NCBI RefSeq assembly: GCF_013167455.1
Contig: NZ_CP038328.1
Reading direction: 5' to 3' (one strand)
DNA from: Escherichia coli O157:H7
GTDB taxonomy: Bacteria; Pseudomonadota; Gammaproteobacteria; Enterobacterales; Enterobacteriaceae
DNA: 64,000 nt
Positions 4,059 through 42,818 of the stretch are shown here, piece after piece. Numbering within the stretch: the stretch's first letter is position 1; each line of letters opens with the position of its first letter. Below the pieces are notes generated by a model. It made no database searches. It was not told where the DNA came from and was given only the letters and a program-made list of their open reading frames with translations. The position numbers and the translations under genes are program-made.

Positions 4059-4132
4059 AGCACCATCCCTCTTCATGTTTTAACCATGAGCGTATGCGCC
4101 CGTGATCTGACATTAAGTCTGGTTGCTAACAG

Positions 4133-4169
4133 CAAAAAAACCACCCGGCAGCGAAAATTCACTGCCGGG
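4133..4169 (-). terminator. Stem-loop CCCGGCAG-N10-CTGCCGGG followed by a T-run on the minus strand, between phoA and psiF
   Basis: Read directly; classic intrinsic-terminator architecture 8-10 nt after the phoA stop. Confidence 0.6.
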
Positions 4170-4176
4170 AGCGGTT

Positions 4177-5615
4177 TTATTTCAGCCCCAGAGCGGCTTT
4201 CATGGTGTAGAAGAGATCGGTCTGGTCGGTCAGTCCAACGACATTGGCGGCATGCGGGCCATACGCCGCAATACGCAACTGACTGCCGGTATGTTCTTGT
4301 GAATCCTCTTCGGAGTTCCCGTAACTCATCACCATCACTGCGCCATCTTTGGTATTTAGCGCCTGAGTGAGGCCCGGAGCTTTGGTATCCGGCGCAACAA
4401 TCTGGCTGGCGTGGGCGTGATCAGCGGTGACTATGACCAGCGTGTTACCATCCTTTTTGGCGAATTCCAGCGCCCGTTGTACGGCTTCATCGAGATCGAC
4501 CGTCTCGCCAATTTGCCCACAAGGATTCGCAGCATGATCCTGTTTATCGATTGACGCACCTTCAACTTGCAGGAAAAAGCCTTTCTCATTTTTACTCAAC
4601 AATTCAATGGCTTTGTCGGTCATCTGTGCCAGGGTCGGTACACTGTCATTACGTTGCGGATTAGGCGTACAGGTGACTGCGGGCTTATCGATATTACCGT
4701 GGTACGTTGCTTTCGGTCCTAGCCAGCGCACTGGCATATTGCCGTCAGCAAACAGGCCAAGCAGGGGTTTTTGCTGATTCGCTTCCGTCACCGAATTCAG
4801 TGAGGCAGCATCGCTCACCAACTGATAACCACGCGCCTGTGCCTGTTCACGCAGCGTTTTTCCCTGCCATTCACCAGCGGTTGCCGTTTCAGCAAAGGTT
4901 TTTGCGCCGCCGCCAAGCGTAACGTCGGCACGAGCGTTAAGCAGCTGTTCGGTAATCGATCCTTTTCCGCCTTTTTCCAGAGCGTTACCCGGACATTTTT
5001 CACTGGTCGCGCTCGGACCGTAGCATTTGCGCGAGGTCACATGCGCCACCAGCGCGGCGGGCGTGGCATCCTGCAACTCTGCGGTAGAAACGTTACCGGT
5101 CGCCAGACCTGCGGCTTTTGCCATTTCCAGAATCGTTGGGTGATCTTTTTCGTGAATATCGACGCCCAGCGCGCCGTTATAGGTTTTGACACCGGTTGAC
5201 CAGGCGGTTGCTGATGCAGCCGAGTCGGTGACGTAGTCCGGTTTTCCGGTTTTTTTATTCAGCGCATAGTGAGTGTATTGCCCGGTAAGCGGTAAGGCAT
5301 CGATACCTTTAAAAAAGCCGCCCGCACCTTCGGCATAATTACGTGCGGCAGTAATTTCCGAATCCCCCATCCCATCGCCAATCAGCAAAATAATATTTTT
5401 TGCAGGTTTATCGCTAAGAGAATCACGCAGAGCGGCGGTCTGATCAGCCGTTAAGCGGCGGTCTGATCAGCCGTTAAGCGGCGAGCACCGCCGGGTGCAG
5501 TAATATCGCCCTGAGCAGCCCGGTTTTCCAGAACAGGCATTTCTGGTGTCCGGGCTTTTGTCACAGGGGTAAACAGTAACGGTAAGAGTGCCAGTGCAAT
5601 AGTGCTTTGTTTCAC
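4177..5615 (-). pseudogene. phoA: Alkaline phosphatase phoA, reading frame broken by a 23-bp direct tandem duplication in the region encoding the first residues of the mature protein
   Basis: N-terminal fragment (ORF 5451..5684: ...[54 protein letters not shown]) and C-terminal fragment (4177..5388) lie in different frames. The span from the GTG start to the stop is 1439 nt, which is 1416 + 23. Confidence 0.85.
5432..5477. repeat. Perfect direct tandem duplication of a 23-bp unit (plus strand GCGGCGGTCTGATCAGCCGTTAA x2) inside phoA
   Basis: Both copies read directly and adjacent; the second copy brings a TAA in frame. Confidence 0.9.
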
Positions 5616-5976: not shown

Positions 5977-6438
5977 GTCTGTATTTCCTTATCCAAAGTA
6001 TGGAGAAGTTAACATTATGTTTCACAACTTCATAGTGTCTGGAGGTATTATTTTTATGGCAAAGGAAATACTTTGCGCAAATATTTTTTGTTTGATTACC
6101 AGCGAAACGTTTCTCTTATTTAAATAATTACCCACACAAAACATAGGCTTTTAATTATCAACCTTTATTATAAATAAAAGTTATGAAATATATTCTCTTC
6201 GTTAACTTATAATTAAGAGAAAAAAACTCACCGCATGGCCATTTAAGCCAGGAATAAATTAGCTTCCCGTTCATCATTTTTGTGATCTTGCGCACATCTT
6301 TGAGATAACGCACTTTCTTCACCAGTACGTTGCACGCTTTGTCAGCAGAAGATTGCAACAATCTTTCAGAAGGCCGCGAATCCCCCGTTTTGTCGTGGTA
6401 ATGTATGCACTTTGTGTTAGACGGGATAGGTTTTTAAG

Positions 6439-9502: not shown

Positions 9503-10723
9503 TTAGCTCAAGGTATGGGTTACTTCCTGAATTTTGTCACCATCCAGCTCATGTTCAAAGCTGCGCAGACGTTTGTAGATAGACATCAACTCAACCAGTG
9601 TGGTCCATGAGTTAATCAGGTACTGGAAAGCACCGCGAACCTGACCAAAAACGTTGGTAATCTGCGTCATCAGGCCGAGCGTAATCGTACCGGCAACAAT
9701 TGACGGAAACAGCAAGAACAAACCGAAAACGTTATCGACCTGCAAATAGAGAATGCGAGCGATGTTGAAATACATATAGTGAAAATAGAGGCGGAAATAG
9801 TTTTTCCGTACGGCGCTAAACAGCTCGCGTACCGTTGGCGGCGTCGCGCGCGTGGCATCGTCTTCACCATAAACCAGCTCTTTACGGTAGGCAGCCTCTA
9901 CACGCTGGTTTTTAAACTCCAGCCCCGGCAGTTTGATCCCTACCACTGCCAGCAATCCGGTCCCCATCAGCGACCAGACGATAGCGGCAATCACCAGACC
10001 ATACGGAATGTGCCCGATAATCGGCAGCTCCGGCACATGCGCGGAGAGCGTTACCAACACCGGCAGGAAGGCGATCAACGTCATGATGGCGTTGATAAAA
10101 CTGACACCCATATTCTCCAGCGTTGAAGCAAAACGCATGGTGTCTTCCTGCACACGCTGTGCGGCGCCTTCGATATGACGCAGTTGTTGCCAGTTCGCCA
10201 TGTAATATTCGTTCATCGCCGTACGCCAGCGGAACACGTAGTGACTGACAAAGAAGTTATTCAGCACACTGATCACTACCGCGATCAGCGCAATCCCCAG
10301 AAAGACGCCCACTTCGCGGTAAAATTGTTCGATAGTGACTTTATGCGGCGAACTTAGCGCGGTTTGAATCAGATCATAGAACGGTGCATACCAGGCGTTG
10401 ACGGCAACCCCAACTTCCACCAAAAACCAGGTGACGAAGATGATCAGTGCAGTACCGAGTATTGACCAGTATTGCCAACGGTGCGGGCTGTAGATAAACC
10501 AGAACAATGCAAAAAGTCCTACGCAAACAATGTAGTAAGCGTAAAAAATCAGGAAATCCAACGACCAGAAACGCGCGGCGCTAATCGGGATCTGCCCGGA
10601 AGCGCCGGTGATACGCGCCACCCAGTCCCCCCCACCGGCTTGCCAGAAGATAACGGCAATCAATGCCCAAACAAAGGCCGAGAGAAAAAACGTTCCCGGC
10701 TTTGGGAAAAAAGACTTAAACAT
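9503..10723 (-). CDS. sbmA: Peptide/antimicrobial-peptide transporter SbmA (406 aa; start at [10 protein letters not shown])
   Basis: Polytopic membrane protein matching remembered SbmA. Confidence 0.9.
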
Positions 10724-11074
10724 ATGCACTCCTGCTAACTTCTTATCGTTTTAACAACTGCTGTGTATTAACCGCATGACCGCTACAAAGCGTCAGCCAA
10801 ATGAAACCGCCCATTGTGACTCATAGCAAGGCGCTTAGTTCGCCAGCCTGGCCATAAGAATTGTTTCGACGGATTTCACAAACCAAAGATTGTTTACATA
10901 AGCGGATTAACACGCGCAGGATCACAAATGCAGGCATTGGTGAGCAGGAAAAAGATCGTGTTTACGCGCCGTTACGTTTTTAACACTATTATTGCACTAA
11001 TTCGCCCTTTGCAATCCATCAATGAGTAGTATAAATACGCTCAGTTACCTTCATTCAATTTATGGACACCACCG

Positions 11075-12232
11075 TTGAAACGTAGTCTGCTTTTTTCTGC
11101 CGTGCTGTGTGCGGCGTCATTGACCTCCGTCCATGCGGCGCAGCCGATCACTGAACCGGAGTTTGCCTCTGATATTGTCGATCGTTATGCCGATCATATT
11201 TTTTACGGCAGCGGTGCCACGGGGATGGCGCTGGTTGTTATCGACGGTAACCAGCGCGTCTTTCGCAGTTATGGCGAAACGCGACCTGGTAATAACGTTC
11301 GCCCGCAGCTGGATTCGGTCGTGCGTATTGCTTCCCTCACCAAGCTAATGACCAGTGAGATGCTGGTGAAATTGCTCGACCAGGGGACCGTGAAGTTAAA
11401 CGATCCGCTAAGTAAATATGCTCCGCCAGGCGCACGCGTGCCAACCTACAATGGGACGCCCATTACGCTGGTCAATCTGGCAACCCATACCAGCGCCCTG
11501 CCCCGTGAACAGCCCGGTGGCGCGGCACATCGTCCGGTGTTTGTCTGGCCAACGCGCGAGCAACGCTGGAAATACCTTTCTACGGCGAAGCTGAAAGCCG
11601 CGCCAGGCAGTCAGGCGGCGTACTCTAACCTTGCGTTCGACCTGCTGGCAGATGCACTGGCGAATGCGTCCGGCAAGCCTTATACCCAGTTGTTTGAAGA
11701 GCAGATTACCCGTCCATTGGGGATGAAAGACACCACCTACACTCCCTCACCGGATCAGTGCCGCCGTTTAATGGTTGCTGAGCGCGGTGCCAGTCCGTGC
11801 AATAACACGCTGGCGGCAATTGGCAGCGGCGGCGTCTATTCCACGCCTGGCGATATGATGCGCTGGATGCAGCAGTATTTGTCATCTGATTTTTATCAGC
11901 GCAGTAACCAGGCAGATCGCATGCAGACGTTGATTTATCAGCGCGCGCAGTTTACGAAAGTGATTGGCATGGATGTCCCCGGCAAAGCGGATGCGCTTGG
12001 TTTAGGCTGGGTATATATGGCCCCGAAAGAGGGTCGTCCGGGGATTATTCAGAAGACAGGTGGTGGTGGCGGTTTCATTACCTATATGGCGATGATCCCG
12101 CAGAAGAATATTGGCGCGTTTGTGGTGGTCACTCGTTCGCCGTTGACGCGCTTTAAAAATATGAGCGATGGCATCAATGATCTGGTGACCGAGCTAAGCG
12201 GGAATAAACCGTTGGTTATCCCCGCATCCTGA
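11075..12232 (+). CDS. ampH: Penicillin-binding protein AmpH (class C beta-lactamase fold), apparent TTG start
   Basis: 385 aa with signal peptide and SLTK (SxxK) active-site motif; first codon in the sequence is TTG. Confidence 0.9.
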   Translation: MKRSLLFSAVLCAASLTSVHAAQPITEPEFASDIVDRYADHIFYGSGATGMALVVIDGNQRVFRSYGETRPGNNVRPQLDSVVRIASLTKLMTSEMLVKLLDQGTVKLNDPLSKYAPPGARVPTYNGTPITLVNLATHTSALPREQPGGAAHRPVFVWPTREQRWKYLSTAKLKAAPGSQAAYSNLAFDLLADALANASGKPYTQLFEEQITRPLGMKDTTYTPSPDQCRRLMVAERGASPCNNTLAAIGSGGVYSTPGDMMRWMQQYLSSDFYQRSNQADRMQTLIYQRAQFTKVIGMDVPGKADALGLGWVYMAPKEGRPGIIQKTGGGGGFITYMAMIPQKNIGAFVVVTRSPLTRFKNMSDGINDLVTELSGNKPLVIPAS

Positions 12233-12921
<689 letters not shown>

Positions 12922-12922
12922 T

Positions 12923-15886
<2,964 letters not shown>

Positions 15887-21209: not shown

Positions 21210-21839
21210 ATGATTCGGGTAGTGCTGGTGGATGACCATGTTGTGGTGCGCTCTGGCTTCGCACAATTACTCTCTCTGGAAGACGATCTGGAGGTCATTG
21301 GTCAGTACAGTAGTGCCGCGCAGGCATGGTCGGCATTAATCCGTGATGACGTCAATGTTGCCGTCATTGATATTGCCATGCCGGACGAAAACGGCCTCAG
21401 TTTGCTTAAGCGCCTGCGTGCACAAAAACCGCAATTTCGCGCCATTATTCTTAGCATTTATGACGCGCCAACCTTTGTGCAAAGCGCGCTGGATGCCGGT
21501 GCCAGCGGGTATTTAACCAAACGCTGTGGGCCGGAAGAGTTAGTACAGGCGGTGCGCTCGGTCGGGCTGGGCGGGCATTATCTCTGTGCCGATGCGATTC
21601 GGGCTTTACGCGGCGGCGGGCAACCCGCCCAGGCGCTGGAAATTCTCACCCCACGAGAACGTGAAGTGTTTGAGTTACTGGTCAAAGGAGACAGCGTTAA
21701 AGAGATCGCCTTTAAACTCGAACTCAGTCATAAAACGGTACATGTGCATCGCGCCAATGTGCTGGGAAAACTGAACTGCCATAGCACCATTGAACTGGTA
21801 CATTTTGCGCTCGACCACCATCTGCTGGCGGGGCATTAA
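21210..21839 (+). CDS. UhpA-like NarL/LuxR-family response regulator (209 aa)
   Basis: MIRVVLVDDHVVVRSGFAQLL... receiver domain plus C-terminal LuxR HTH; strongly resembles UhpA along its length. Confidence 0.85.
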   Translation: MIRVVLVDDHVVVRSGFAQLLSLEDDLEVIGQYSSAAQAWSALIRDDVNVAVIDIAMPDENGLSLLKRLRAQKPQFRAIILSIYDAPTFVQSALDAGASGYLTKRCGPEELVQAVRSVGLGGHYLCADAIRALRGGGQPAQALEILTPREREVFELLVKGDSVKEIAFKLELSHKTVHVHRANVLGKLNCHSTIELVHFALDHHLLAGH

Positions 21840-23380
21840 TGTCGCGCAATCTTCGTCATTGGGTGATTTTGCTGTTTATTGTGCTAGCCTGGGGAACCGG
21901 CTGGCTGATGCTGTGGACGCTCAGCTTTTATCTGACCAATAACGGTCAACAGGCGGTGTTGTTTCTCCCGCAGGGAGTTTATCTCGCCCTTGTTATTTTG
22001 CTCTCTCGCCGCTACTGGCCTGCGTTGGTGCTCCCCCCTTTGCTGATGATGTTCTGGCTCCATAGTGAACAGCTATTGAACGGTTATCTCATGCTGGCAA
22101 CGCCGGTTATTAGCCTGTTTCCTGCCCTCCTTGCGCAAAACTTCTGGCACCGTTTTCCACTTTACTGGCAGCGTCTGACGTTGCTGTTAGCCACTGTCAC
22201 GGCAGCTTCATTGTTGAATACCGCCCTGCTCTCCCCTTTTATGTCAGGCCCAATAATGCTACCGGGTTTGACCTCATTTACCGGCGGCGTATTACTGACG
22301 CCGTTTGTCTATCTTATCTTTGAGTTTCTGCGCCAGCAGCATCGCTACCAGCTCCTGGGACTCGATACGCATAATCCCCCCTTGCGTACCTCTTTAATCA
22401 TCTGGTGTAGCCTGTTTTTTATTATTGGTATCGGCACTCAGATGGTGCTGTCACCTGAAATTGAACGTCTGCTGTTGATCGTGGTCTTTTTGCCCAATGT
22501 GGTGATGGCGTGGAAATTTGGCTGGCAAGGTGGCGTACTCTCCGGGCTTTTGGGCAGCATGATGATCACCATCGCCCGCCAGATTGGCGTGGGCTTTAGT
22601 AACCTGGTGGAGCTGGAGATTTTCCTCGCGACCCAGGCCTTGCTGGGAATTGGCCTGGGCATTGCCATCAGTCGCCAGCAACATCTGGCGCTAAACCTGC
22701 ACCATTACCGACAACGGCTGGAGGCCGAGCTGGCAGCGCGGCGGGCATTGGCGGAAAAGCTGATCCACACCGAGGAGGACACGCGAAAAAACCTGGCGCG
22801 AGAGCTGCACGACGAAATCGGTCAGAACATCACCGCCATTCAGATCCAGTCGCAACTGGTGAAGCGGGCGCGTGATCCGGCGCAAATTCAATCCGCAGCC
22901 AGCCAAATCAATGAGCTCGCCCGCCGCATTCATCTCTCCACCCGCCAATTGCTGCGCCAGTTGCGGCCTCCCGCGCTTGATGAACTGACATTTCGCGAAG
23001 CGTTGCTGCATCTGATTAATGAATTTGCCTTTAGTGAACGCGGCATTCATTGCCAGTTTGCCTATCAACTGAACTCCACACCAGAAAACGAAACGGTGCG
23101 CTTTACCTTGTATCGGTTATTGCAGGAGTTGCTCAATAACATCTGTAAACACGCCGAAGCCAGCGAAGTGACGATTATCCTGCGCCAGCAGGGAGAGGTA
23201 TTGCATCTGGAAGTCAGCGACAACGGTGTGGGGATCGCCAGCGGGAAAATGGCTGGATTTGGCATTCAGGGGATGCGTGAGCGCGTCAGCGCCCTGGGCG
23301 GCGACTTAACGCTCGAAAAACAGCACGGCACGCGGGTAATTGTTAACTTGCCCACATTTTTGCAACAAATCGCCGGATAA
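21839..23380 (+). CDS. UhpB-like sensor histidine kinase (membrane N-terminal domain plus HisKA_3/HATPase), 513 aa
   Basis: Hydrophobic N-terminal half, H-box LARELHDEIGQ, C-terminal ATPase; resembles UhpB. Start overlaps the regulator stop. Confidence 0.85.
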   Translation: MSRNLRHWVILLFIVLAWGTGWLMLWTLSFYLTNNGQQAVLFLPQGVYLALVILLSRRYWPALVLPPLLMMFWLHSEQLLNGYLMLATPVISLFPALLAQNFWHRFPLYWQRLTLLLATVTAASLLNTALLSPFMSGPIMLPGLTSFTGGVLLTPFVYLIFEFLRQQHRYQLLGLDTHNPPLRTSLIIWCSLFFIIGIGTQMVLSPEIERLLLIVVFLPNVVMAWKFGWQGGVLSGLLGSMMITIARQIGVGFSNLVELEIFLATQALLGIGLGIAISRQQHLALNLHHYRQRLEAELAARRALAEKLIHTEEDTRKNLARELHDEIGQNITAIQIQSQLVKRARDPAQIQSAASQINELARRIHLSTRQLLRQLRPPALDELTFREALLHLINEFAFSERGIHCQFAYQLNSTPENETVRFTLYRLLQELLNNICKHAEASEVTIILRQQGEVLHLEVSDNGVGIASGKMAGFGIQGMRERVSALGGDLTLEKQHGTRVIVNLPTFLQQIAG

Positions 23381-23422
23381 CCAGGAAAAAGTCTTAGGTA
23401 TCCCGGATTTTCTCTCATCCCC

Positions 23423-23445
23423 TTTCACTTTCATTTTCATATAGT
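23423..23445 (+). promoter_or_regulatory. Candidate activator-dependent promoter: three direct TTTCA(C/T) repeats, then -10 TATAGT with a poor -35
   Basis: Read directly in the 72-bp gap between the kinase and the UhpC-like gene; a GGAG RBS follows 6 nt before the 23465 ATG. Confidence 0.35.
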
Positions 23446-23464
23446 CAGCAACATGGAGACAACC

Positions 23465-24769
23465 ATGCACGCGCGTTCAGCGAGAGAAATTAATCAATGC
23501 TACCGGACATTACGTCCGCGATTGCTGATGTGCATGATTATTGGCTACGCCGCATTTTATCTGACGCGAAAAAGCGTGAATTACGTCCTTCCGGCGCTAC
23601 AAACCGACCTCGGACTGGATAAAGGCGACATTGGCCTGCTGGGTTCGCTGTTTTATCTCAGCTACGGATTGTCGAAATTTACCGCCGGACTGTGGCATGA
23701 CAGCCACGGACAACGCGGTTTTATGGGCGTCGGCTTGTTCGCCACCGGGTTATTGAACGTGGTGTTTGCCTTTGGCGAATCACTTACGCTTCTGCTTGTG
23801 GTCTGGACACTGAACGGTTTTTTTCAGGGCTGGGGATGGCCACCGTGTGCCCGCTTGCTGACCCACTGGTACTCACGCAATGAGCGCGGTTTCTGGTGGG
23901 GCTGCTGGAATATGTCGATCAACATTGGCGGAGCGATTATTCCGCTGATTAGCGCCTTTGCCGCCCACTGGTGGGGCTGGCAGGCCGCGATGCTGACACC
24001 GGGGATAATCAGCATGGCATTAGGGATCTGGTTAACGCTACAACTCAAAGGCACGCCCCAGGAAGAGGGATTACCGACAGTTGGTCACTGGCGTCACGAT
24101 CCGCTGGAGTTACGTCAGGAACAACAAAGTCCGCCGATGGGGCTGTGGCAAATGTTGCGCACCACCATGCTGCAAAATCCGCTGATCTGGCTACTGGGCG
24201 TCTCATATGTACTGGTTTATGTGATCCGGATTGCGCTTAACGACTGGGGCAATATCTGGCTGACGGAAAGCCACGGTGTCAACCTGCTCAGCGCCAACGC
24301 CACGGTAATGCTGTTTGAAGTGGGCGGCTTACTCGGCGCGTTATTTGCCGGATGGGGATCGGATTTGCTGTTTAGCGGGCAACGAGCGCCAATGATTTTG
24401 CTGTTCACGTTGGGGTTGATGGTGTCAGTCGCCGCACTGTGGCTGGCACCGGTTCATCACTACGCTCTGCTGGCAGTGTGCTTTTTTACCGTGGGCTTTT
24501 TCGTCTTTGGCCCACAAATGCTGATTGGACTTGCGGCGGTGGAGTGTGGGCACAAAGCTGCGGCGGGTTCAATCACCGGATTTCTCGGCCTGTTCGCTTA
24601 CCTTGGCGCGGCGCTGGCAGGCTGGCCGCTGTCGCTGGTCATCGAACGCTACGGCTGGCCGGGAATGTTCAGTTTACTCTCGGTCGCCGCAGTACTTATG
24701 GGTTTACTGCTGATGCCGTTACTGATGGCGGGCATCACCACCACTCACGCTCGAAGGATAAAACAATGA
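23465..24769 (+). CDS. UhpC-like MFS membrane sensor (organophosphate:Pi antiporter family), about 434 aa
   Basis: 12-TM MFS protein with strong resemblance to UhpC (FYLTRKS..., GPQMLIG...). Start at 23465 preferred over 23453 because of the RBS. Confidence 0.85.
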   Translation: MHARSAREINQCYRTLRPRLLMCMIIGYAAFYLTRKSVNYVLPALQTDLGLDKGDIGLLGSLFYLSYGLSKFTAGLWHDSHGQRGFMGVGLFATGLLNVVFAFGESLTLLLVVWTLNGFFQGWGWPPCARLLTHWYSRNERGFWWGCWNMSINIGGAIIPLISAFAAHWWGWQAAMLTPGIISMALGIWLTLQLKGTPQEEGLPTVGHWRHDPLELRQEQQSPPMGLWQMLRTTMLQNPLIWLLGVSYVLVYVIRIALNDWGNIWLTESHGVNLLSANATVMLFEVGGLLGALFAGWGSDLLFSGQRAPMILLFTLGLMVSVAALWLAPVHHYALLAVCFFTVGFFVFGPQMLIGLAAVECGHKAAAGSITGFLGLFAYLGAALAGWPLSLVIERYGWPGMFSLLSVAAVLMGLLLMPLLMAGITTTHARRIKQ

Positions 24770-25797
24770 AAATGACCTTTACCTCTACTCTGATTGCTTC
24801 TGCCGTTGCGCTGGCGACTTTAACGGGTGCCGCGCAGGCAAAAGGCCGGCTGGTGGTCTATTGCAGCGCCACCAATGAAATGTGTGAGGCCGAAACCAAA
24901 GCGTTTGGCGAGAAATATGATGTAAAAACCTCGTTTATCCGCAACGGTTCCGGAAGCACCCTGGCAAAAGTCGATGCTGAAAAGAAAAACCCCCAGGCTG
25001 ACGTCTGGTACGGCGGCACTTTAGACCCGCAATCGCAGGCTGGCGAGATGGGCCTGCTACAGGCGTATAAATCCCCTAACCTTGAGCAGATCATGGAGAA
25101 ATTCCGCGATCCGGCAAAAGTGAAAGGGAATCTGTCCTCTGCCGTTTATGTGGGGATCCTCGGTTTTGGCGTAAACACCGATCGTCTGAAAGAGAAAAAC
25201 CTGCCGGTGCCGAAGTGCTGGAAAGATCTCACCAAACCGGAATATAAAGGCGAAATTCAAATTGCCGATCCGCAAAGTTCCGGTACTGCCTACACCGCCC
25301 TGGCTACTTTTGCGCAGCTGTGGGGGGAAGATCAGGCCTTTGATTATCTAAAACAACTGAACGCCAACGTCTCTCAGTACACCAAATCAGGCATAGCCCC
25401 GGCACGTAACGCCGCCCGTGGCGAAACGGCGATTGGTATTGGCTTCCTGCATGACTACTCGCTGGAAAAAGAACAGGGCGCGCCGCTGGAGTTGATTTCC
25501 CCGTGTGAAGGTACGGGCTACGAAATTGGCGGCGTCAGCATTCTGAAAGGCGCGCGCAACCTCGACAACGCCAAACTGTTTGTGGACTGGGTATTATCAA
25601 AAGAAGCTCAGGAACTGGCGTGGAAGAAAGGGAAGTCTTATCAGATCCTGACTAATACCACCGCCGAAACGTCGCCAAATTCGCTGAAGCTCGACGACCT
25701 GAAATTAATCAACTACGACATGGATAAATATGGTTCCACGGATGTTCGTAAGGCATTGATTAATAAATGGGTCAGCGAAGTGAAGATGGGTAAATAA
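24766..25797 (+). CDS. AfuA/FbpA-family periplasmic substrate-binding protein (343 aa)
   Basis: Signal peptide MKMTFTSTLIASAVALATLTGAAQA then SBP fold; ATG overlaps the UhpC-like stop (ATGA). The long listed ORF 24439.. is an upstream extension. Confidence 0.8.
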   Translation: MKMTFTSTLIASAVALATLTGAAQAKGRLVVYCSATNEMCEAETKAFGEKYDVKTSFIRNGSGSTLAKVDAEKKNPQADVWYGGTLDPQSQAGEMGLLQAYKSPNLEQIMEKFRDPAKVKGNLSSAVYVGILGFGVNTDRLKEKNLPVPKCWKDLTKPEYKGEIQIADPQSSGTAYTALATFAQLWGEDQAFDYLKQLNANVSQYTKSGIAPARNAARGETAIGIGFLHDYSLEKEQGAPLELISPCEGTGYEIGGVSILKGARNLDNAKLFVDWVLSKEAQELAWKKGKSYQILTNTTAETSPNSLKLDDLKLINYDMDKYGSTDVRKALINKWVSEVKMGK

Positions 25798-25865
25798 ACC
25801 CGCATTAGGCGCATTTGCCGGGTGCAGCGCAGACGCCTGCCCCGGCCAACCATACCGGAACTGCT

Positions 25866-27944
25866 ATGTCACAGACACTTGCACTCCATCCCGTGAAAAA
25901 GCGGGATGCGATTTTCCTTTGGGTTTTGCTGGGCTGGCTGGCATTTGTCCTGTTGCCGAGCTGGAGCCTCGATTATGGCCTGCTGGAATCCACGAGTGAT
26001 GAGATCCTCGGGGCGTACGGCTGGTCGCATTTTAATATCAGCTGGCTGTGGTATTTACTCCCGAGCCTGTTGCTGGTCCGCCCGTTTCGTCAGGCCACGC
26101 GCGAACAGCGTAGTCGTCATTATTTCGATGCCGGCTGGGCATTGCTCTGTATGGCGTTTATCGTCATCAGCGCCACCGTGGCTGGACGCGGTTTAGGCTA
26201 CGCCGCCATCGTGCTGTTTGTCGAACTAGGCGCGATTATGACGCTGGCCTTAACCCGCCTCGAATGGCTGGGCGGCGACCGCTTCGTGATCGGCTCACTG
26301 ATTGCGATTGTGGCGCTGATTGGCATTTTTATCGTCTGGCCGAGCATCGCCATTTTTATCCCGATGTTCACCAACGACGCGGGAGAGCTCGCCCCGCTGG
26401 CGTTTATGACCGTGCTCTCGCAGGCACATATTGTTCAGGTGATCGTCAACTCTATCGTCTTGTCGATAGCGGTGGGGATAGGCTGTGCTTTCTTCGGCCT
26501 GGTGCTGGCGATTTATACCACGCGCATCGCTAAACGCAGCGCCATTATTGGTCGCATCTTTTCCATTTTGCCCATCGTTACGCCACCGTTTGTGGTCGGC
26601 TTAGGCGTGACGCTCATGATGGGGCGTTCCGGCTATGTTACGGAATTTATGGTGGAGTGGTTTGGGCTGACCAACACCAACTGGCTGTACGGTTTTACCG
26701 GGATCTGGCTGGCACAGGTTCTGGCATTCACGCCAATGGCATTTATGATCCTCGACGGGGCCATTAAAACCATTCATCCCTCGCTGGAAGAGGCCTCCTA
26801 CACCCTGCGCGCCAGCCGCTGGCAAACCTTTAACGGCGTGTTTGTGCCGTTGTTGAAGCCCGCGCTCGCCAATGCCTTTTTAATCGTCGTGGTACAGTCA
26901 CTGGCTGATTTCAGTAACCCGCTGGTACTTGGCGGTAACTTCGACGTACTGGCGACGCAAATTTACTTCTATATTACCGGCTCGCAGCTGGATTATCAGG
27001 CCGCCAGCACCCTTGGCGCTTTCCTGCTGCTGTTCTCGCTGCTGGTGTTCTGCATACAGTATATGTGGATTGGTAAACGCTCTTACGTCACGGTTTCCGG
27101 CAAATCCTACCGTGGCGACGTCCAGCCGCTTCCGGTCACCCTGGTGTGGAGCGTGGTCGCCATACTTGCGATATGGATTGCCTTTAACGCCCTGCTCTAC
27201 GGCAGCATTTTCTACGGCAGCTTCACGGTGAACTGGGGCGTGGACTACACCCTGACGCTGGATAACTTTATCAAGCTATTTGGTCAGGGAATGAGCGACG
27301 GCGCGTGGCCTTCACTGCTGGATACCCTGCTCTACGCCGGGATTGCCGCTCCCATTACCGCTATCTTTGGCCTGCTCATCGCCTGGGTGGTGGTGCGTCA
27401 ACAATTCAAAGGCAAAAAGACCATCGAGTTCACCACCATGCTGTGCTTTGCCGTACCGGGTACGGTGGCGGGCGTTTCGTATATTCTTGCCTTTAACAGC
27501 GCTCCGGTTTATCTCACCGGAACGGCGGCAATTGTGATTATCTCGATGGTGATGCGTAACGTTCCGGTGGGTATTCGCGCCGGGATTGCAGGCCTGGGGC
27601 AGATCGACAAATCGCTGGATGAAGCCTCACTCAGCCTGCGCGCGGGTTCCTTGCGAACCATAACCCACATTTTACTGCCGCTGCTGCGTCCGGCCATTCT
27701 CTCGGCCCTGATCTACAGCTTTGTGCGGGCCATCACGACGGTCAGCGCCATCGTCTTTCTCGTCACGCCGGACACCCGCGTGGCAACCGCCTACATTCTT
27801 AACCGCGTTGAAGACGGCGAATATGGCGTAGCCATCGCCTATGGTTCGATTCTGATCGTGGTGATGCTGGCGATTATTTTCCTCTTTGACTGGCTGATCG
27901 GAGAAGCACGTATCTCCCGTTCTAAAGCCAAAAACCAGGCGTAA
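25866..27944 (+). CDS. AfuB-type ABC permease with two fused transmembrane domains (about 692 aa)
   Basis: Large polytopic protein typical of FbpB/AfuB-type permeases; ATG at 25866 preferred over the TTG-initiated listed ORF. Confidence 0.8.
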
Positions 27945-27955
27945 TGGAGCGCACT

Positions 27956-29002
27956 ATGAGTCAGAAAAATTTTGTGGAACTGCGCAACGTCACTAAACGA
28001 TTCGGCAGTAATACGGTTATCGACAATATCAATCTCACCATCCCACAAGGGCAAATGGTGACGCTGCTTGGCCCTTCCGGCTGCGGCAAAACCACCATTT
28101 TGCGTCTGGTTGCCGGGCTGGAAAAACCGAGTGAAGGGCAAATCTTTATTGATGGCGAAGATGTCACGCATCGTTCCATTCAGCAGCGCGATATCTGCAT
28201 GGTGTTTCAGTCATACGCTCTGTTCCCGCATATGTCGCTGGGCGAAAACGTCGGCTACGGGTTAAAGATGCTCGGCGTGTCGCGTAGCGAAGTAAAGCAG
28301 CGGGTGAAAGAGGCGCTGGCAATGGTGGATCTGGAAGGGTTCGAGGACCGCTATGTCGACCAGATTTCCGGTGGTCAGCAACAGCGCGTGGCGCTGGCCC
28401 GCGCGTTGATCCTCAAACCAAAGGTGCTGCTGTTTGATGAGCCGTTAAGTAACCTCGATGCCAACCTGCGCCGCAGCATGCGCGATAAGATCCGCGAGCT
28501 GCAAAAGCAGTTTAATATCACGTCGCTCTACGTGACTCACGATCAAAGTGAGGCCTTCGCGGTTTCCGACACTGTGCTGGTGATGAATAAAGGTCACATC
28601 ATGCAGATTGGCTCACCGCAGGATCTCTATCGTCAGCCAGCCTCCCGCTTTATGGCAAGTTTTATGGGCGACGCCAACCTGTTCCCGGCGAACTTTAGCG
28701 AAGAGTATGTCGATATCTACGGTTATCGCCTGCCGCGCGCGGCGCATTTCCCGGTGCAAGGTAGCGGCACCGTCGGCGTTCGCCCGGAAGCCATCACCTT
28801 AAGCAATCACGGCGAAGAGAGTCAGCGTTGTGTTATTCGCCATGTCGCCTACATGGGGCCGCAGTACGAAGTGACCGTAGAGTGGCATGGACAGGAGATT
28901 TTATTACAAGTAAACGCCACCCGTTTACAGCCCGATATTGGTGAGCACTATTACCTCGAAATCCATCCTTACGGGATGTTTGTTTTAGCGGATGCGGCAT
29001 AA
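27956..29002 (+). CDS. AfuC-type ABC ATP-binding protein (about 348 aa; alternative start 27944)
   Basis: Walker [10 protein letters not shown], signature [15 protein letters not shown], Walker B LLFDEP; GGAG RBS upstream of 27956. Confidence 0.85.
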
Positions 29003-41068: not shown

Positions 41069-41845
41069 ATGAAAATTACGCAAATTCGTAATGCCACCCA
41101 AATTATCCAATACGCTGGCAAAACATTTCTTATCGACCCGTTACTCGCGCCTAAAGGAAGTTATCCGGGTTTTGCCGGAACGGCACGCGCAGAAATCCGC
41201 AATCCAACGGTAGAATTACCGTGCGATTTAACAACGTTACTCAACGTTGACGCCCTAATCGTGACCCATTTGCATGAAGATCACTGGGACGAAACAGCCT
41301 CCCGCGTCGTCCCTAAAGATAAACTGATTTATGTGCAAAATGAGCAAGATGCTGAATCACTGAATAAACAAGGATTTACGCATCTTACCGTACTTACCGA
41401 CGAGACTAAATTTGGCGATATTACTCTGCATAAAACGACAGGGCAGCACGGCTCCGATCGCACCTATGCCGACCCGGCGATGGCGAAGCGTTTAGGCGCA
41501 GCTTGCGGCGTTGTTTTCCAGCACCCGACAGAGAAAACGCTCTATCTGGCTGGCGATACCCTCTGGCGTGACGACGTCGAGGCTACAATGCTAACTTTCC
41601 AACCAGAAGTGGTTGTGTTGAATGCCGGATTTGCGCATGTTCTGGGGCATGGCGCGATAATTATGGGAGCAGAAGATATTCTCAAAACACATTTTACCCT
41701 CCCAGAAGCGCAAATTATCGCGACACATATGGAGGCCGTAAACCACTGTTTGCTGACGCGTGATGCGCTCAAGGAATACGCCAGAGATAATCAAATTATC
41801 GAATTTGTGAACGTACCAGAAGATGGTGAAACGTTGACATTCTAA
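41069..41845 (+). CDS. Metallo-beta-lactamase-fold hydrolase (about 258 aa), function unknown
   Basis: HxHxDH zinc motif THLHEDHWDE; GGAG RBS 6 nt upstream of the ATG. Confidence 0.75.
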   Translation: MKITQIRNATQIIQYAGKTFLIDPLLAPKGSYPGFAGTARAEIRNPTVELPCDLTTLLNVDALIVTHLHEDHWDETASRVVPKDKLIYVQNEQDAESLNKQGFTHLTVLTDETKFGDITLHKTTGQHGSDRTYADPAMAKRLGAACGVVFQHPTEKTLYLAGDTLWRDDVEATMLTFQPEVVVLNAGFAHVLGHGAIIMGAEDILKTHFTLPEAQIIATHMEAVNHCLLTRDALKEYARDNQIIEFVNVPEDGETLTF

Positions 41846-41864
41846 TTCGGAGATAAAGAGTGTT

Positions 41865-42818
41865 ATGCGCCCGCTAACTGTTGCCATTATCGCCGTTGCC
41901 GGTTTTAGTCCTTTTCACCTTTCCGTACCGTTTATCGTGTTTAGTGAAAAGATGGCGGAGAAAAAACGCTTTCACGTGATTATTTGCGCTGAAAAGCCGG
42001 GAAACGTGGACTCTGCCGATGGGTTTTCCGTAACCGCCACCCATGACTATACCGCAGTCATCCAGGCAGATATTGTGATAATTCCTTACTGGGGAACCAT
42101 TACACAAAAACCGCCACAAAAACTGCTGGAAGCCTTAACGACCGCACGGGATAACGGCGCACAGATTGTCGGGCTTTGCCTGGGCACGTTTGTGCTCGGC
42201 TATGCAGGTTTACTGAAAAATAAGCGTGCCGCCACGCACTGGGAGTTCGAGCGTGAATTTCAGGCACGTTTTCCACAAACACATCTGGATATTAACGCGT
42301 TGTACGTAGACGATGACGGCATTATTACCTCTGCCGGTACTGCCGCGGCGCTGGATTGCTGTTTGTATATTGTTCGGCAACATTTTGGCAGCGACTATGC
42401 TAACCATATTGCCCGACGGATGGTCGTACCGCCATATCGCACCGGCGGTCAGGCGCAGTTTATTGAGCAACCGGTGCCGAAAAATACCCATGATGAACGC
42501 ATAAACCTCCTGCTGGATTACCTGCGGCAAAACATTGCGCAACAGCATGATCTCGACTCGCTGGCGCAGCGAGTAATGATGAGTCGCCGCACATTAACTC
42601 GCCATTTTATGAAAGCGACCGGTTCGAGTATCGCCGAATGGCTCATTACTGAACGCTTACGCCGTAGCCAGGAACTGTTGGGATCCAGTCAGTTGCCCGT
42701 TGAGCGGATAGCGGCTGAGGTGGGTTTTCTCTCACCTGTGACCTGGCGTCAGCATTTTAAATCTCACTTCGGCGTCAGCCCCGCCGAATGGCGCAAAACC
42801 TTTCGCGGTATGGCATGA
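41865..42818 (+). CDS. GlxA-type AraC-family transcriptional regulator (DJ-1/PfpI-like N-terminal domain plus AraC HTH), 317 aa
   Basis: N-terminal class-I glutamine-amidotransferase-like domain with conserved Cys (GLCLGTF) and C-terminal AraC HTH. Confidence 0.8.
   Translation: MRPLTVAIIAVAGFSPFHLSVPFIVFSEKMAEKKRFHVIICAEKPGNVDSADGFSVTATHDYTAVIQADIVIIPYWGTITQKPPQKLLEALTTARDNGAQIVGLCLGTFVLGYAGLLKNKRAATHWEFEREFQARFPQTHLDINALYVDDDGIITSAGTAAALDCCLYIVRQHFGSDYANHIARRMVVPPYRTGGQAQFIEQPVPKNTHDERINLLLDYLRQNIAQQHDLDSLAQRVMMSRRTLTRHFMKATGSSIAEWLITERLRRSQELLGSSQLPVERIAAEVGFLSPVTWRQHFKSHFGVSPAEWRKTFRGMA

Follow-up and report, generated by a model that had tools for sequence, protein, structure and literature searches.

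The TTG codon at which ampH begins in Escherichia coli O157:H7 is a real start, correctly read and already present in public annotation; it is not new, and no re-annotation is needed in E. coli. This codon was analysed within a 64,000-nucleotide stretch of contig NZ_CP038328.1 (hereafter, the window), for which a sequence-only reading had claimed that AmpH initiates at TTG. The geometry of the open reading frame, the signal peptide, two independent annotations, the 80 orthologs with their codon invariance, and an in vitro initiation peak all agree with that claim. Taken as a whole, it is very probable that the UUG at 11075 is the true start, and the presumably modest initiation region around it appears to have been kept by selection, most likely for a low and fixed translation.

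The ampH reading frame and its product

The features on which the reading of the frame depends are the following.

11075..12232, plus strand: ampH coding sequence, 385 codons and TGA (NF007943, RefSeq and K-12 annotation, 3ozh)
11075..11077, plus strand: TTG initiation codon of ampH (open reading frame list, annotation, 80 of 80 orthologs, INRI-seq peak)
11027..11029, plus strand: in-frame TAG closing the ampH frame upstream, 48 nt before the TTG (there is a stop at -48 in Escherichia)
11075..11137, plus strand: predicted Sec signal peptide, codons 1-21, with an M-KR n-region, SLLFSAVLCAASLT as h-region and cleavage between VHA and AQP
11333..11344, plus strand: catalytic SxxK motif, S87-L-T-K90 (sequence motif)

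In the mechanical list of open reading frames, ampH extends over 11075..12232 of the plus strand and encodes 385 aa from a TTG start, with AAA at 11078-11080 as its second codon. The RefSeq/PGAP coding sequence (L001 2726-3883, equivalent to window 11075-12232) has the identical TTG start, and the curated K-12 record b0376 (395130..396287, minus strand of NC_000913.3) comprises the same 1158 nt with the same TTG. Read backwards from 11075, the frame passes through CCG CCA ACA TGG TTA AAT TTC TCA CCT TTA CAG GCT TAC AAA TAT before reaching TAG, and none of these fifteen sense codons is ATG, GTG, TTG, CTG, ATT, ATC or ATA. The UUG is therefore the earliest possible start after the upstream in-frame stop, and it yields the full-length conserved protein.

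The ATG closest to the TTG (11062-11064) lies 13 nt upstream and is out of frame, and downstream no in-frame ATG occurs before codon 51 (11225), which is 29 residues beyond the site where the signal peptide is predicted to be cleaved. Thus, the statement that no in-frame ATG precedes the signal peptide holds, and the alternative named by the same reading, a shortened signal peptide made from a downstream ATG, cannot arise for structural reasons, the first such ATG being past the whole peptide. Over 501 nt around the start, the sequence matches O157:H7 strain PV15-279 with 100% identity, and the start region was found in 5420 of 5426 complete genomes.

The identity of the product is given by the NCBIfam equivalog NF007943 (700.6 bits against a cut-off of 266, E = 3.4e-211), in which model positions 1-380 align with residues 1-378. 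AmpH is a class-C beta-lactamase-like PBP whose homologs carry Pfam PF00144, with 3ozh as a structural homolog in the PDB (E = 5e-152). In addition to the SxxK motif listed above, the other serine-PBP motifs are found as Y183-S-N (YxN) and K327-T-G (KTG). The gene is divergent from sbmA-yaiW and convergent with iprA, a conserved context. AmpH has been described as a periplasmic bifunctional DD-endopeptidase/DD-carboxypeptidase (PMC9600279, citing Henderson 1997 and Gonzalez-Leiza 2011).

With the TTG as start, the predicted signal peptide is MKRSLLFSAVLCAASLTSVHA, followed by AQP. Its features, assigned by rules, are the basic residues K2 and R3, a 14-residue core with a mean Kyte-Doolittle hydropathy of 1.93, V at -3 and A at -1. 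Every bacterial start codon is decoded by the initiator fMet-tRNA. Since this tRNA would also read the UUG at 11075, the precursor would begin with Met-Lys-Arg-Ser, and the 21-residue Sec signal peptide would later be removed on export, releasing periplasmic AmpH. N-terminal proteomics of the ordinary kind cannot decide where translation starts, since export removes the signal peptide and leaves a mature protein beginning at about AQPIT.

Conservation of the start codon and initiation in vitro

Orthologs were collected with one genome per species, giving 80 loci of 83-99% protein identity from more than 20 genera of Enterobacteriaceae, which include Escherichia, Salmonella, Citrobacter, Kluyvera, Klebsiella, Raoultella, Enterobacter, Leclercia, Lelliottia, Kosakonia, Atlantibacter, Franconibacter, Trabulsiella, Pluralibacter and Phytobacter, among others. 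The homologous codon is TTG in all 80. A codon test was then applied to the 267 degenerate positions whose amino acid is conserved in at least 90% of the species, and only four of them proved codon-invariant: codons 1 (TTG), 2 (AAA), 3 (CGT) and 93. By comparison, none of the other 27 conserved Leu positions is invariant; each uses 2-6 codons and none prefers TTG. Because its codon is invariant against 27 variable Leu codons, the TTG behaves as a start and not as a Leu codon.

The invariance extends to the codons that follow.

11078..11083, plus strand: codons 2-3 of ampH, AAA CGT, invariant even at synonymous sites

AAA is present at codon 2 in 80/80 species and CGT at codon 3 in all 78 in which the residue is Arg, whereas the top-codon frequency at the other Lys and Arg codons of ampH ranges from 0.36 to 0.97. 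All bases from -2 to +8 around the TTG are invariant, synonymous sites included. By column conservation, three islands stand out: TAGTATAAATA at -48..-38, (A)TGGA at -13..-9, and the invariant CG-TTG-AAA-CGT.

The TTG has been kept even where an in-frame ATG has been gained at -9, as occurs in Kluyvera, Klebsiella, Leclercia, Pseudocitrobacter and Silvania. The protein homolog search returned only matches of at least 85% identity, and Serratia and more distant relatives were reached through a search of a representative library. In Serratia, whose AmpH is 65% identical, the start is also TTG, the surrounding ATGGAT...CCG-TTG-AA is shared, and a stop at -9 closes the frame; a metagenomic relative with 50% identity has a TTG start and a stop at -6. 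A 58% relative starts with ATG, but there a lipoprotein-type signal (LSAC) has taken the place of the N-terminus. From these alignments, the arrangement GGA ... CG-UUG-AAA-CGU appears to be held by purifying selection from Enterobacteriaceae into Serratia.

Gene callers disagree about the start of ampH in other genera, where the protein has been deposited with 385 aa (TTG), with 388 aa (ATG at -9) and with 404-430 aa. In Enterobacter sp. kpr-6 the same gene appears twice, as MKRCLLL... (385 aa) and as MLSLKRCLLL... (388 aa). The 404-430 aa versions carry implausible extensions before the signal peptide, running through the promoter region. The codon-invariance test favours the TTG.

Direct evidence of initiation comes from INRI-seq, an in vitro translation of a synthetic E. 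coli transcriptome in which initiation complexes are stalled with retapamulin (PMC9825163). In the part of its Table S2 that was available, the start of ampH (b0376, 396287, minus strand) is called TRUE, with 41.9, 43.6, 29.7, 44.4 and 43.5 CPM in the five replicates (PMC9825163). The template carried the native -30 leader, and a peak call requires footprint 3' ends that fall 12-18 nt past the first start-codon base (PMC9825163). This peak belongs to the TTG, since a ribosome placed on the ATG at -13 would leave 3' ends near +2. Among the rows listed, it is a mid-range peak, about 40 of some 95 called genes being higher in replicate 1. It has thus been shown that initiation complexes form at the ampH UUG in vitro, the published peak being seen in 5/5 replicates. 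[quoted passage not shown] This zero is uninformative, because that dataset captures only some 18% of the annotated starts. No ampH entry was found in the supplements of TRAINSPOTTER nascent N-terminomics and TetRP.

With these data, the possibility can be weighed that the real start is an in-frame codon further downstream, GTG10, TTG16 or ATG51, the TTG at 11075 being an upstream Leu codon or untranslated. GTG (11102) and TTG (11120) are in frame in E. coli, and Ribo-RET gives no in vivo initiation signal for ampH. However, neither GTG10 nor TTG16 is conserved: the sequence varies at +27..+29 and +45..+47, and most species and most genera have Ala as residue 10. An intact signal peptide is obtained only from the TTG start: a product begun at CTG5, GTG10, CTG11 or TTG16 would lack the n-region with K2/R3, and nothing of the peptide would be left in one begun at ATG51. 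The alignment with the AmpH family model begins at residue 1, the INRI-seq peak is placed 12-18 nt from the TTG of the annotation, and the invariance of the TTG is that of a start, unlike any other Leu codon. A downstream start has been effectively refuted by conservation, signal peptide, INRI-seq and family model, and the probability left to it is negligible.

Strength and persistence of the initiation region

The Shine-Dalgarno (SD) sequence of ampH is minimal.

11064..11066, plus strand: GGA, minimal Shine-Dalgarno core, 8 nt before the TTG, 100% conserved

Pairing of the leader with the anti-SD involves GGA only, with -3.0 kcal/mol against -12.5 for a consensus SD. At the 5-10 nt spacing expected of an SD, ampH therefore has nothing but this very weak element. 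The baseline was taken from 52 cleanly mapped annotated genes of the window (mapped on NZ_AP018488.1, with six genes below about 5000 left out), of which 45 start with ATG, 5 with GTG and 2 with TTG. The SD of ampH is among the eight weakest of these 52, whose median is near -6 kcal/mol. The conserved A and T of ATGGA are not accounted for by SD pairing.

UUG starts about 3% of E. coli genes, and initiation by the class formed by AUG, GUG and UUG ranges over 10-100% of that from AUG (Hecht et al., bioRxiv 10.1101/063800). Genome-wide, selection favours AUG starts, and UUG genes are more often compensated by a strong SD (959) than left with a weak one (392) (PMC5622118). The general remark that non-ATG starts usually imply low translational efficiency fits this literature and the weak SD of ampH, but the in vitro peak of the gene, at 30-44 CPM, is mid-range among the rows listed and not low. 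A weak initiation region is plausible for ampH as predicted from its sequence.

RNA structure does not seem to contribute. A single-sequence fold at the ampH start was no better than shuffles (z = 0.58), the alignment fold gave no conserved structure (-2.5 kcal/mol, with a covariation term of -0.1), and no Rfam match was found for the leader. Control of the TTG by RNA structure was thus rejected, taking into account also that the stem sequestering the TTG in E. coli is not conserved.

Based on these features, initiation at ampH would be intrinsically modest, combining a near-cognate start, a 3-nt SD located 8 nt upstream, an A-rich codon 2 (AAA), and an mRNA with no stable or conserved structure. 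The invariant AAA-CGU context may help this weak start to work. Such a start would keep the translation of this peptidoglycan hydrolase at a low and fixed rate, which is the most likely reason for the conserved arrangement. A weak start frozen together with a weak SD speaks for selection on a low, fixed production of the cell-wall enzyme, and we infer that selection favours a low output of AmpH.

It could also be that the TTG is indeed the start but persists by phylogenetic inertia or mutational chance, an ATG being equally good and simply not having arisen. On a neighbour-joining tree of the same genes, 4-fold sites have undergone at least about 21 changes on average, with only 1 of 109 never changing, and about 8 pyrimidine-purine events are counted at sites with a T majority. 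The rate at which UUG starts become AUG or GUG is about half that of 4-fold sites (Belinky et al., PMC5622118), so about four switches would be expected on this tree for a typical UUG start and none has been observed; the resulting P(0) of about 0.02 is rough, as it depends on parsimony and on rates obtained from closely related genome triplets (PMC5622118). The roughness of this estimate, with a P of only about 0.02, leaves some room for inertia, as do the general conservation of start codons and the fact that the UUG-to-AUG bias is not significant in gamma-proteobacteria (PMC5622118). Against it stand the zero switches in 80 species, Serratia and the 50% relative, while neutral sites change about 21 times, the flanks from -2 to +8, invariant at synonymous sites too, and the weak SD, which is uncompensated against the genome-wide trend of UUG genes (PMC5622118). 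Inertia is consequently considered unlikely, and selection on a modest start is the explanation preferred here.

The start itself being already known, what is mildly interesting is how deeply it is conserved and that its weak SD is uncompensated. These features make ampH a clean case of a sub-optimal start and a weak SD frozen together across two families of Enterobacterales, and a simple testable system for how weak initiation regions persist.

The ampH leader and comparison with known systems

The leader contains further conserved elements, some of which have been considered as possible regulators of the TTG.

11062..11085, plus strand: putative mini-ORF, ATG GAC ACC ACC GTT GAA ACG TAG (MDTTVET and a stop), out of frame and overlapping the TTG start
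11027..11037, plus strand: conserved TAGTATAAATA, inferred -10 region (TATAAA, 11030-11035) of the ampH promoter, conservation 0.91-0.99 in 80 species
11008-11013, plus strand: possible -35 element, TTTGCA, by inference only
10961..10975, minus strand: CpxR-box-like GTAACGGCGCGTAAA, sbmA-ampH intergenic, with one mismatch to GTAAA-N5-GTAAA

An upstream NTG is retained at -12, -13 or -14 in 79/80 species (ATG in 76, GTG in 2 and TTG in 1), the remaining one having ACG. T(-12) is conserved in 99% and A(-13) in 96%, though SD pairing needs only GGA. An ORF of 5-7 codons (MDTTVET or MDAFR, each followed by a stop) is found in 66 of the 80 species and in Serratia, ending either at +1 (the UGA in U-UGA-A) or with UAG at +8. 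In 13/80 species the upstream ORF runs for 30-39 codons or more, and in one of the 80 it is in frame with ampH.

Two minority readings have been built on these observations. According to the first, a conserved upstream mini-ORF of 5-7 codons, ending on or just after the UUG, would control the TTG either by re-initiation (coupling, to the rescue of a weak start) or by occlusion (as a decoy, with less output). The UUGA overlap of stop and start resembles the classical arrangement of translational coupling. The retention of the NTG in 79/80, the conservation beyond what GGA needs, and the fact that the ORF ends at +1 or +8 whichever its frame, in 66/80 and Serratia, point in the same direction. 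However, when an SD for the upstream AUG was sought by anti-SD pairing, none was found (+0.9 kcal/mol); the ORF is long in 13 species and in frame in one; the peptide sequence is not conserved across frames; and the relative with 50% identity, which has no upstream AUG, still uses TTG. Moreover, the part of the INRI-seq supplement text that was available lists no alternative initiation site for ampH, with the -30 leader present on the template (PMC9825163). Control by the mini-ORF is thus quite improbable, and an equally low probability is given to the broader proposal in which the upstream AUG of ATGGA and the frozen UUG-AAA-CGU would together form a conserved translational device, by coupling or occlusion, fixing the dosage of a peptidoglycan hydrolase.

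A parallel can be drawn with the 7-aa out-of-frame ORF of oppA described in the INRI-seq paper, as the 7-codon ORF of ampH also overlaps the main initiation region (PMC9825163). The difference is that ribosome peaks occur on the oppA ORF both in vivo and in vitro, none being reported for ampH in the portion of that source that was available (PMC9825163).

The second minority reading considers the conserved A-N-GGA over the SD to be bound in trans by a regulator of translation, such as a protein of the CsrA type or an sRNA, to which a weak TTG and a weak SD would make ampH sensitive. The match of ATGGA to the ANGGA core, its overlap with the SD and its conservation beyond the needs of SD pairing would be in agreement with this.

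ANGGA is the core of CsrA sites, and CsrA dimers usually need two nearby sites. The E. coli leader and the first 80 nt of the coding sequence contain a single GGA, with the next at about +84, and no conserved hairpin presents the GGA. A literature search for a link between ampH and CsrA found none. This reading is therefore highly unlikely. A CsrA-repressed leader was rejected as such, as it needs at least two GGA within some 10-60 nt, including one that covers the SD, and only one is present.

Upstream of these elements, the conserved TATAAA suggests an ampH promoter. A consensus promoter and terminator scan of 10700-11200 found nothing, and in the text of the Cappable-seq supplement no TSS is listed at K-12 396290-396349 or close by. 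It has been reported that sbmA-ampH contains a CpxR box and that the transcription of ampH depends on CpxR (PMC9600279). Thus, the transcription of ampH would be regulated separately from the fixed translation rate proposed here, for instance by CpxR.

As regards other systems, the ampH of E. coli K-12 (b0376; UniProt P0AD70) shares its TTG start and leader with the window, the sole difference being one SNP at -15. A weak start used for the control of expression is that of infC, which encodes IF3 and starts with AUU; like infC, ampH has a conserved sub-optimal start codon, which would be retained for reasons of regulation or dosage. Unlike it, infC is autoregulatory through discrimination by IF3, and the UUG of ampH is far less discriminated against than AUU. 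To our knowledge, there is no IF3-type autoregulatory loop for ampH. Both infC and pcnB have AUU starts (bioRxiv 10.1101/063800). With the canonical UUG-initiated genes of E. coli, ampH has in common a UUG read by the initiator tRNA, but it differs from them in a weak and uncompensated SD, reduced to GGA, and in having undergone no switch where about four would be expected.

Translation starts of ampH and other genes

Automated annotation has assigned conflicting starts to the orthologs of ampH, with both the 385-aa and the 388-aa versions of AmpH having been deposited for one and the same organism. The deposited proteins take three forms:

Form 1: 385 aa, beginning at the TTG.
Form 2: 388 aa, with the in-frame ATG at -9 as its start codon, as in MLSLKRC... 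and MPPLKRS....
Form 3: 404-430 aa, with long extensions preceding the signal peptide.

Among the 52 cleanly mapped annotated genes of the window, the sole CDS with a TTG start besides ampH would encode a hypothetical protein whose Shine-Dalgarno (SD) sequence is likewise weak (-3.1 kcal/mol):

about 6158-6361, minus strand: WP_001300163.1, hypothetical protein of 67 aa, between ddlA and iraP.

The reading frame of iprA extends open for 15 codons 5' of its annotated ATG (12856-12901, minus strand), giving two possible forms:

from 12901, minus strand: longest form of the iprA ORF, 222 aa in the ORF listing.
from 12856, minus strand: annotated iprA CDS, 207 aa.

[quoted passage not shown]

The sbmA-ampH intergenic region

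In the sbmA ORF (minus strand), the earliest start-type codon is a GTG located two codons 5' of the annotated ATG (10723-10729), and this GTG overlaps a strong AGGAG SD (AGGAGTGCATATG); of the two codons, the ATG used in the annotation makes better sense as the start. The strong SD of sbmA contrasts with the weak signals of ampH at the opposite side of one intergenic region, which also contains a predicted regulatory site:

10961-10975, minus strand: near-consensus CpxR box, GTAACGGCGCGTAAA, with one mismatch.

This CpxR-box-like sequence, placed approximately 100-114 nt 5' of the ampH TTG, fits the published prediction of the CpxR regulon. A weak FlhDC ChIP signal has also been described in this intergenic region (PMC4183435).

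The ampH-iprA junction and differences between strains

The genes ampH (plus strand) and iprA (minus strand) are convergent, with no intergenic bases between their stop codons (12230-12235):

12230-12232, plus strand: ampH stop, TGA, adjoining the iprA stop.
12233-12235, minus strand: iprA stop, TAA, directly next to the ampH TGA.

Such a junction offers no room for a terminator and makes overlap between the two transcripts inevitable. The layout is identical in K-12, where the boundary falls at 395129/395130.

Between position 1 and about 5000, coordinates derived from the reference record NZ_AP018488.1 gave nonsense start codons for psiF, adrA, proC, yaiI, aroL and yaiA, which points to an indel in the window with respect to that record, somewhere around 4100-5600, and to an incomplete collinearity with the O157:H7 strain PV15-279. 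Two gene blocks, for which the O157 annotation gives generic product names only, may be strain-variable islands with respect to K-12:

21210-27956, plus strand: fbpC, ABC permease, substrate-binding protein, uhpC-like gene, MASE1 histidine kinase and response regulator.
41069-42818, plus strand: GlxA-family regulator and MBL-fold hydrolase, between lacI and mhpR.

The window also carries an adhesin gene:

12944-15886, minus strand: EhaB, intact autotransporter adhesin of 980 aa.

As would fit an O157:H7-like source for the window, this copy is intact, whereas the corresponding locus in K-12 is occupied by yaiT, an IS-disrupted pseudogene.
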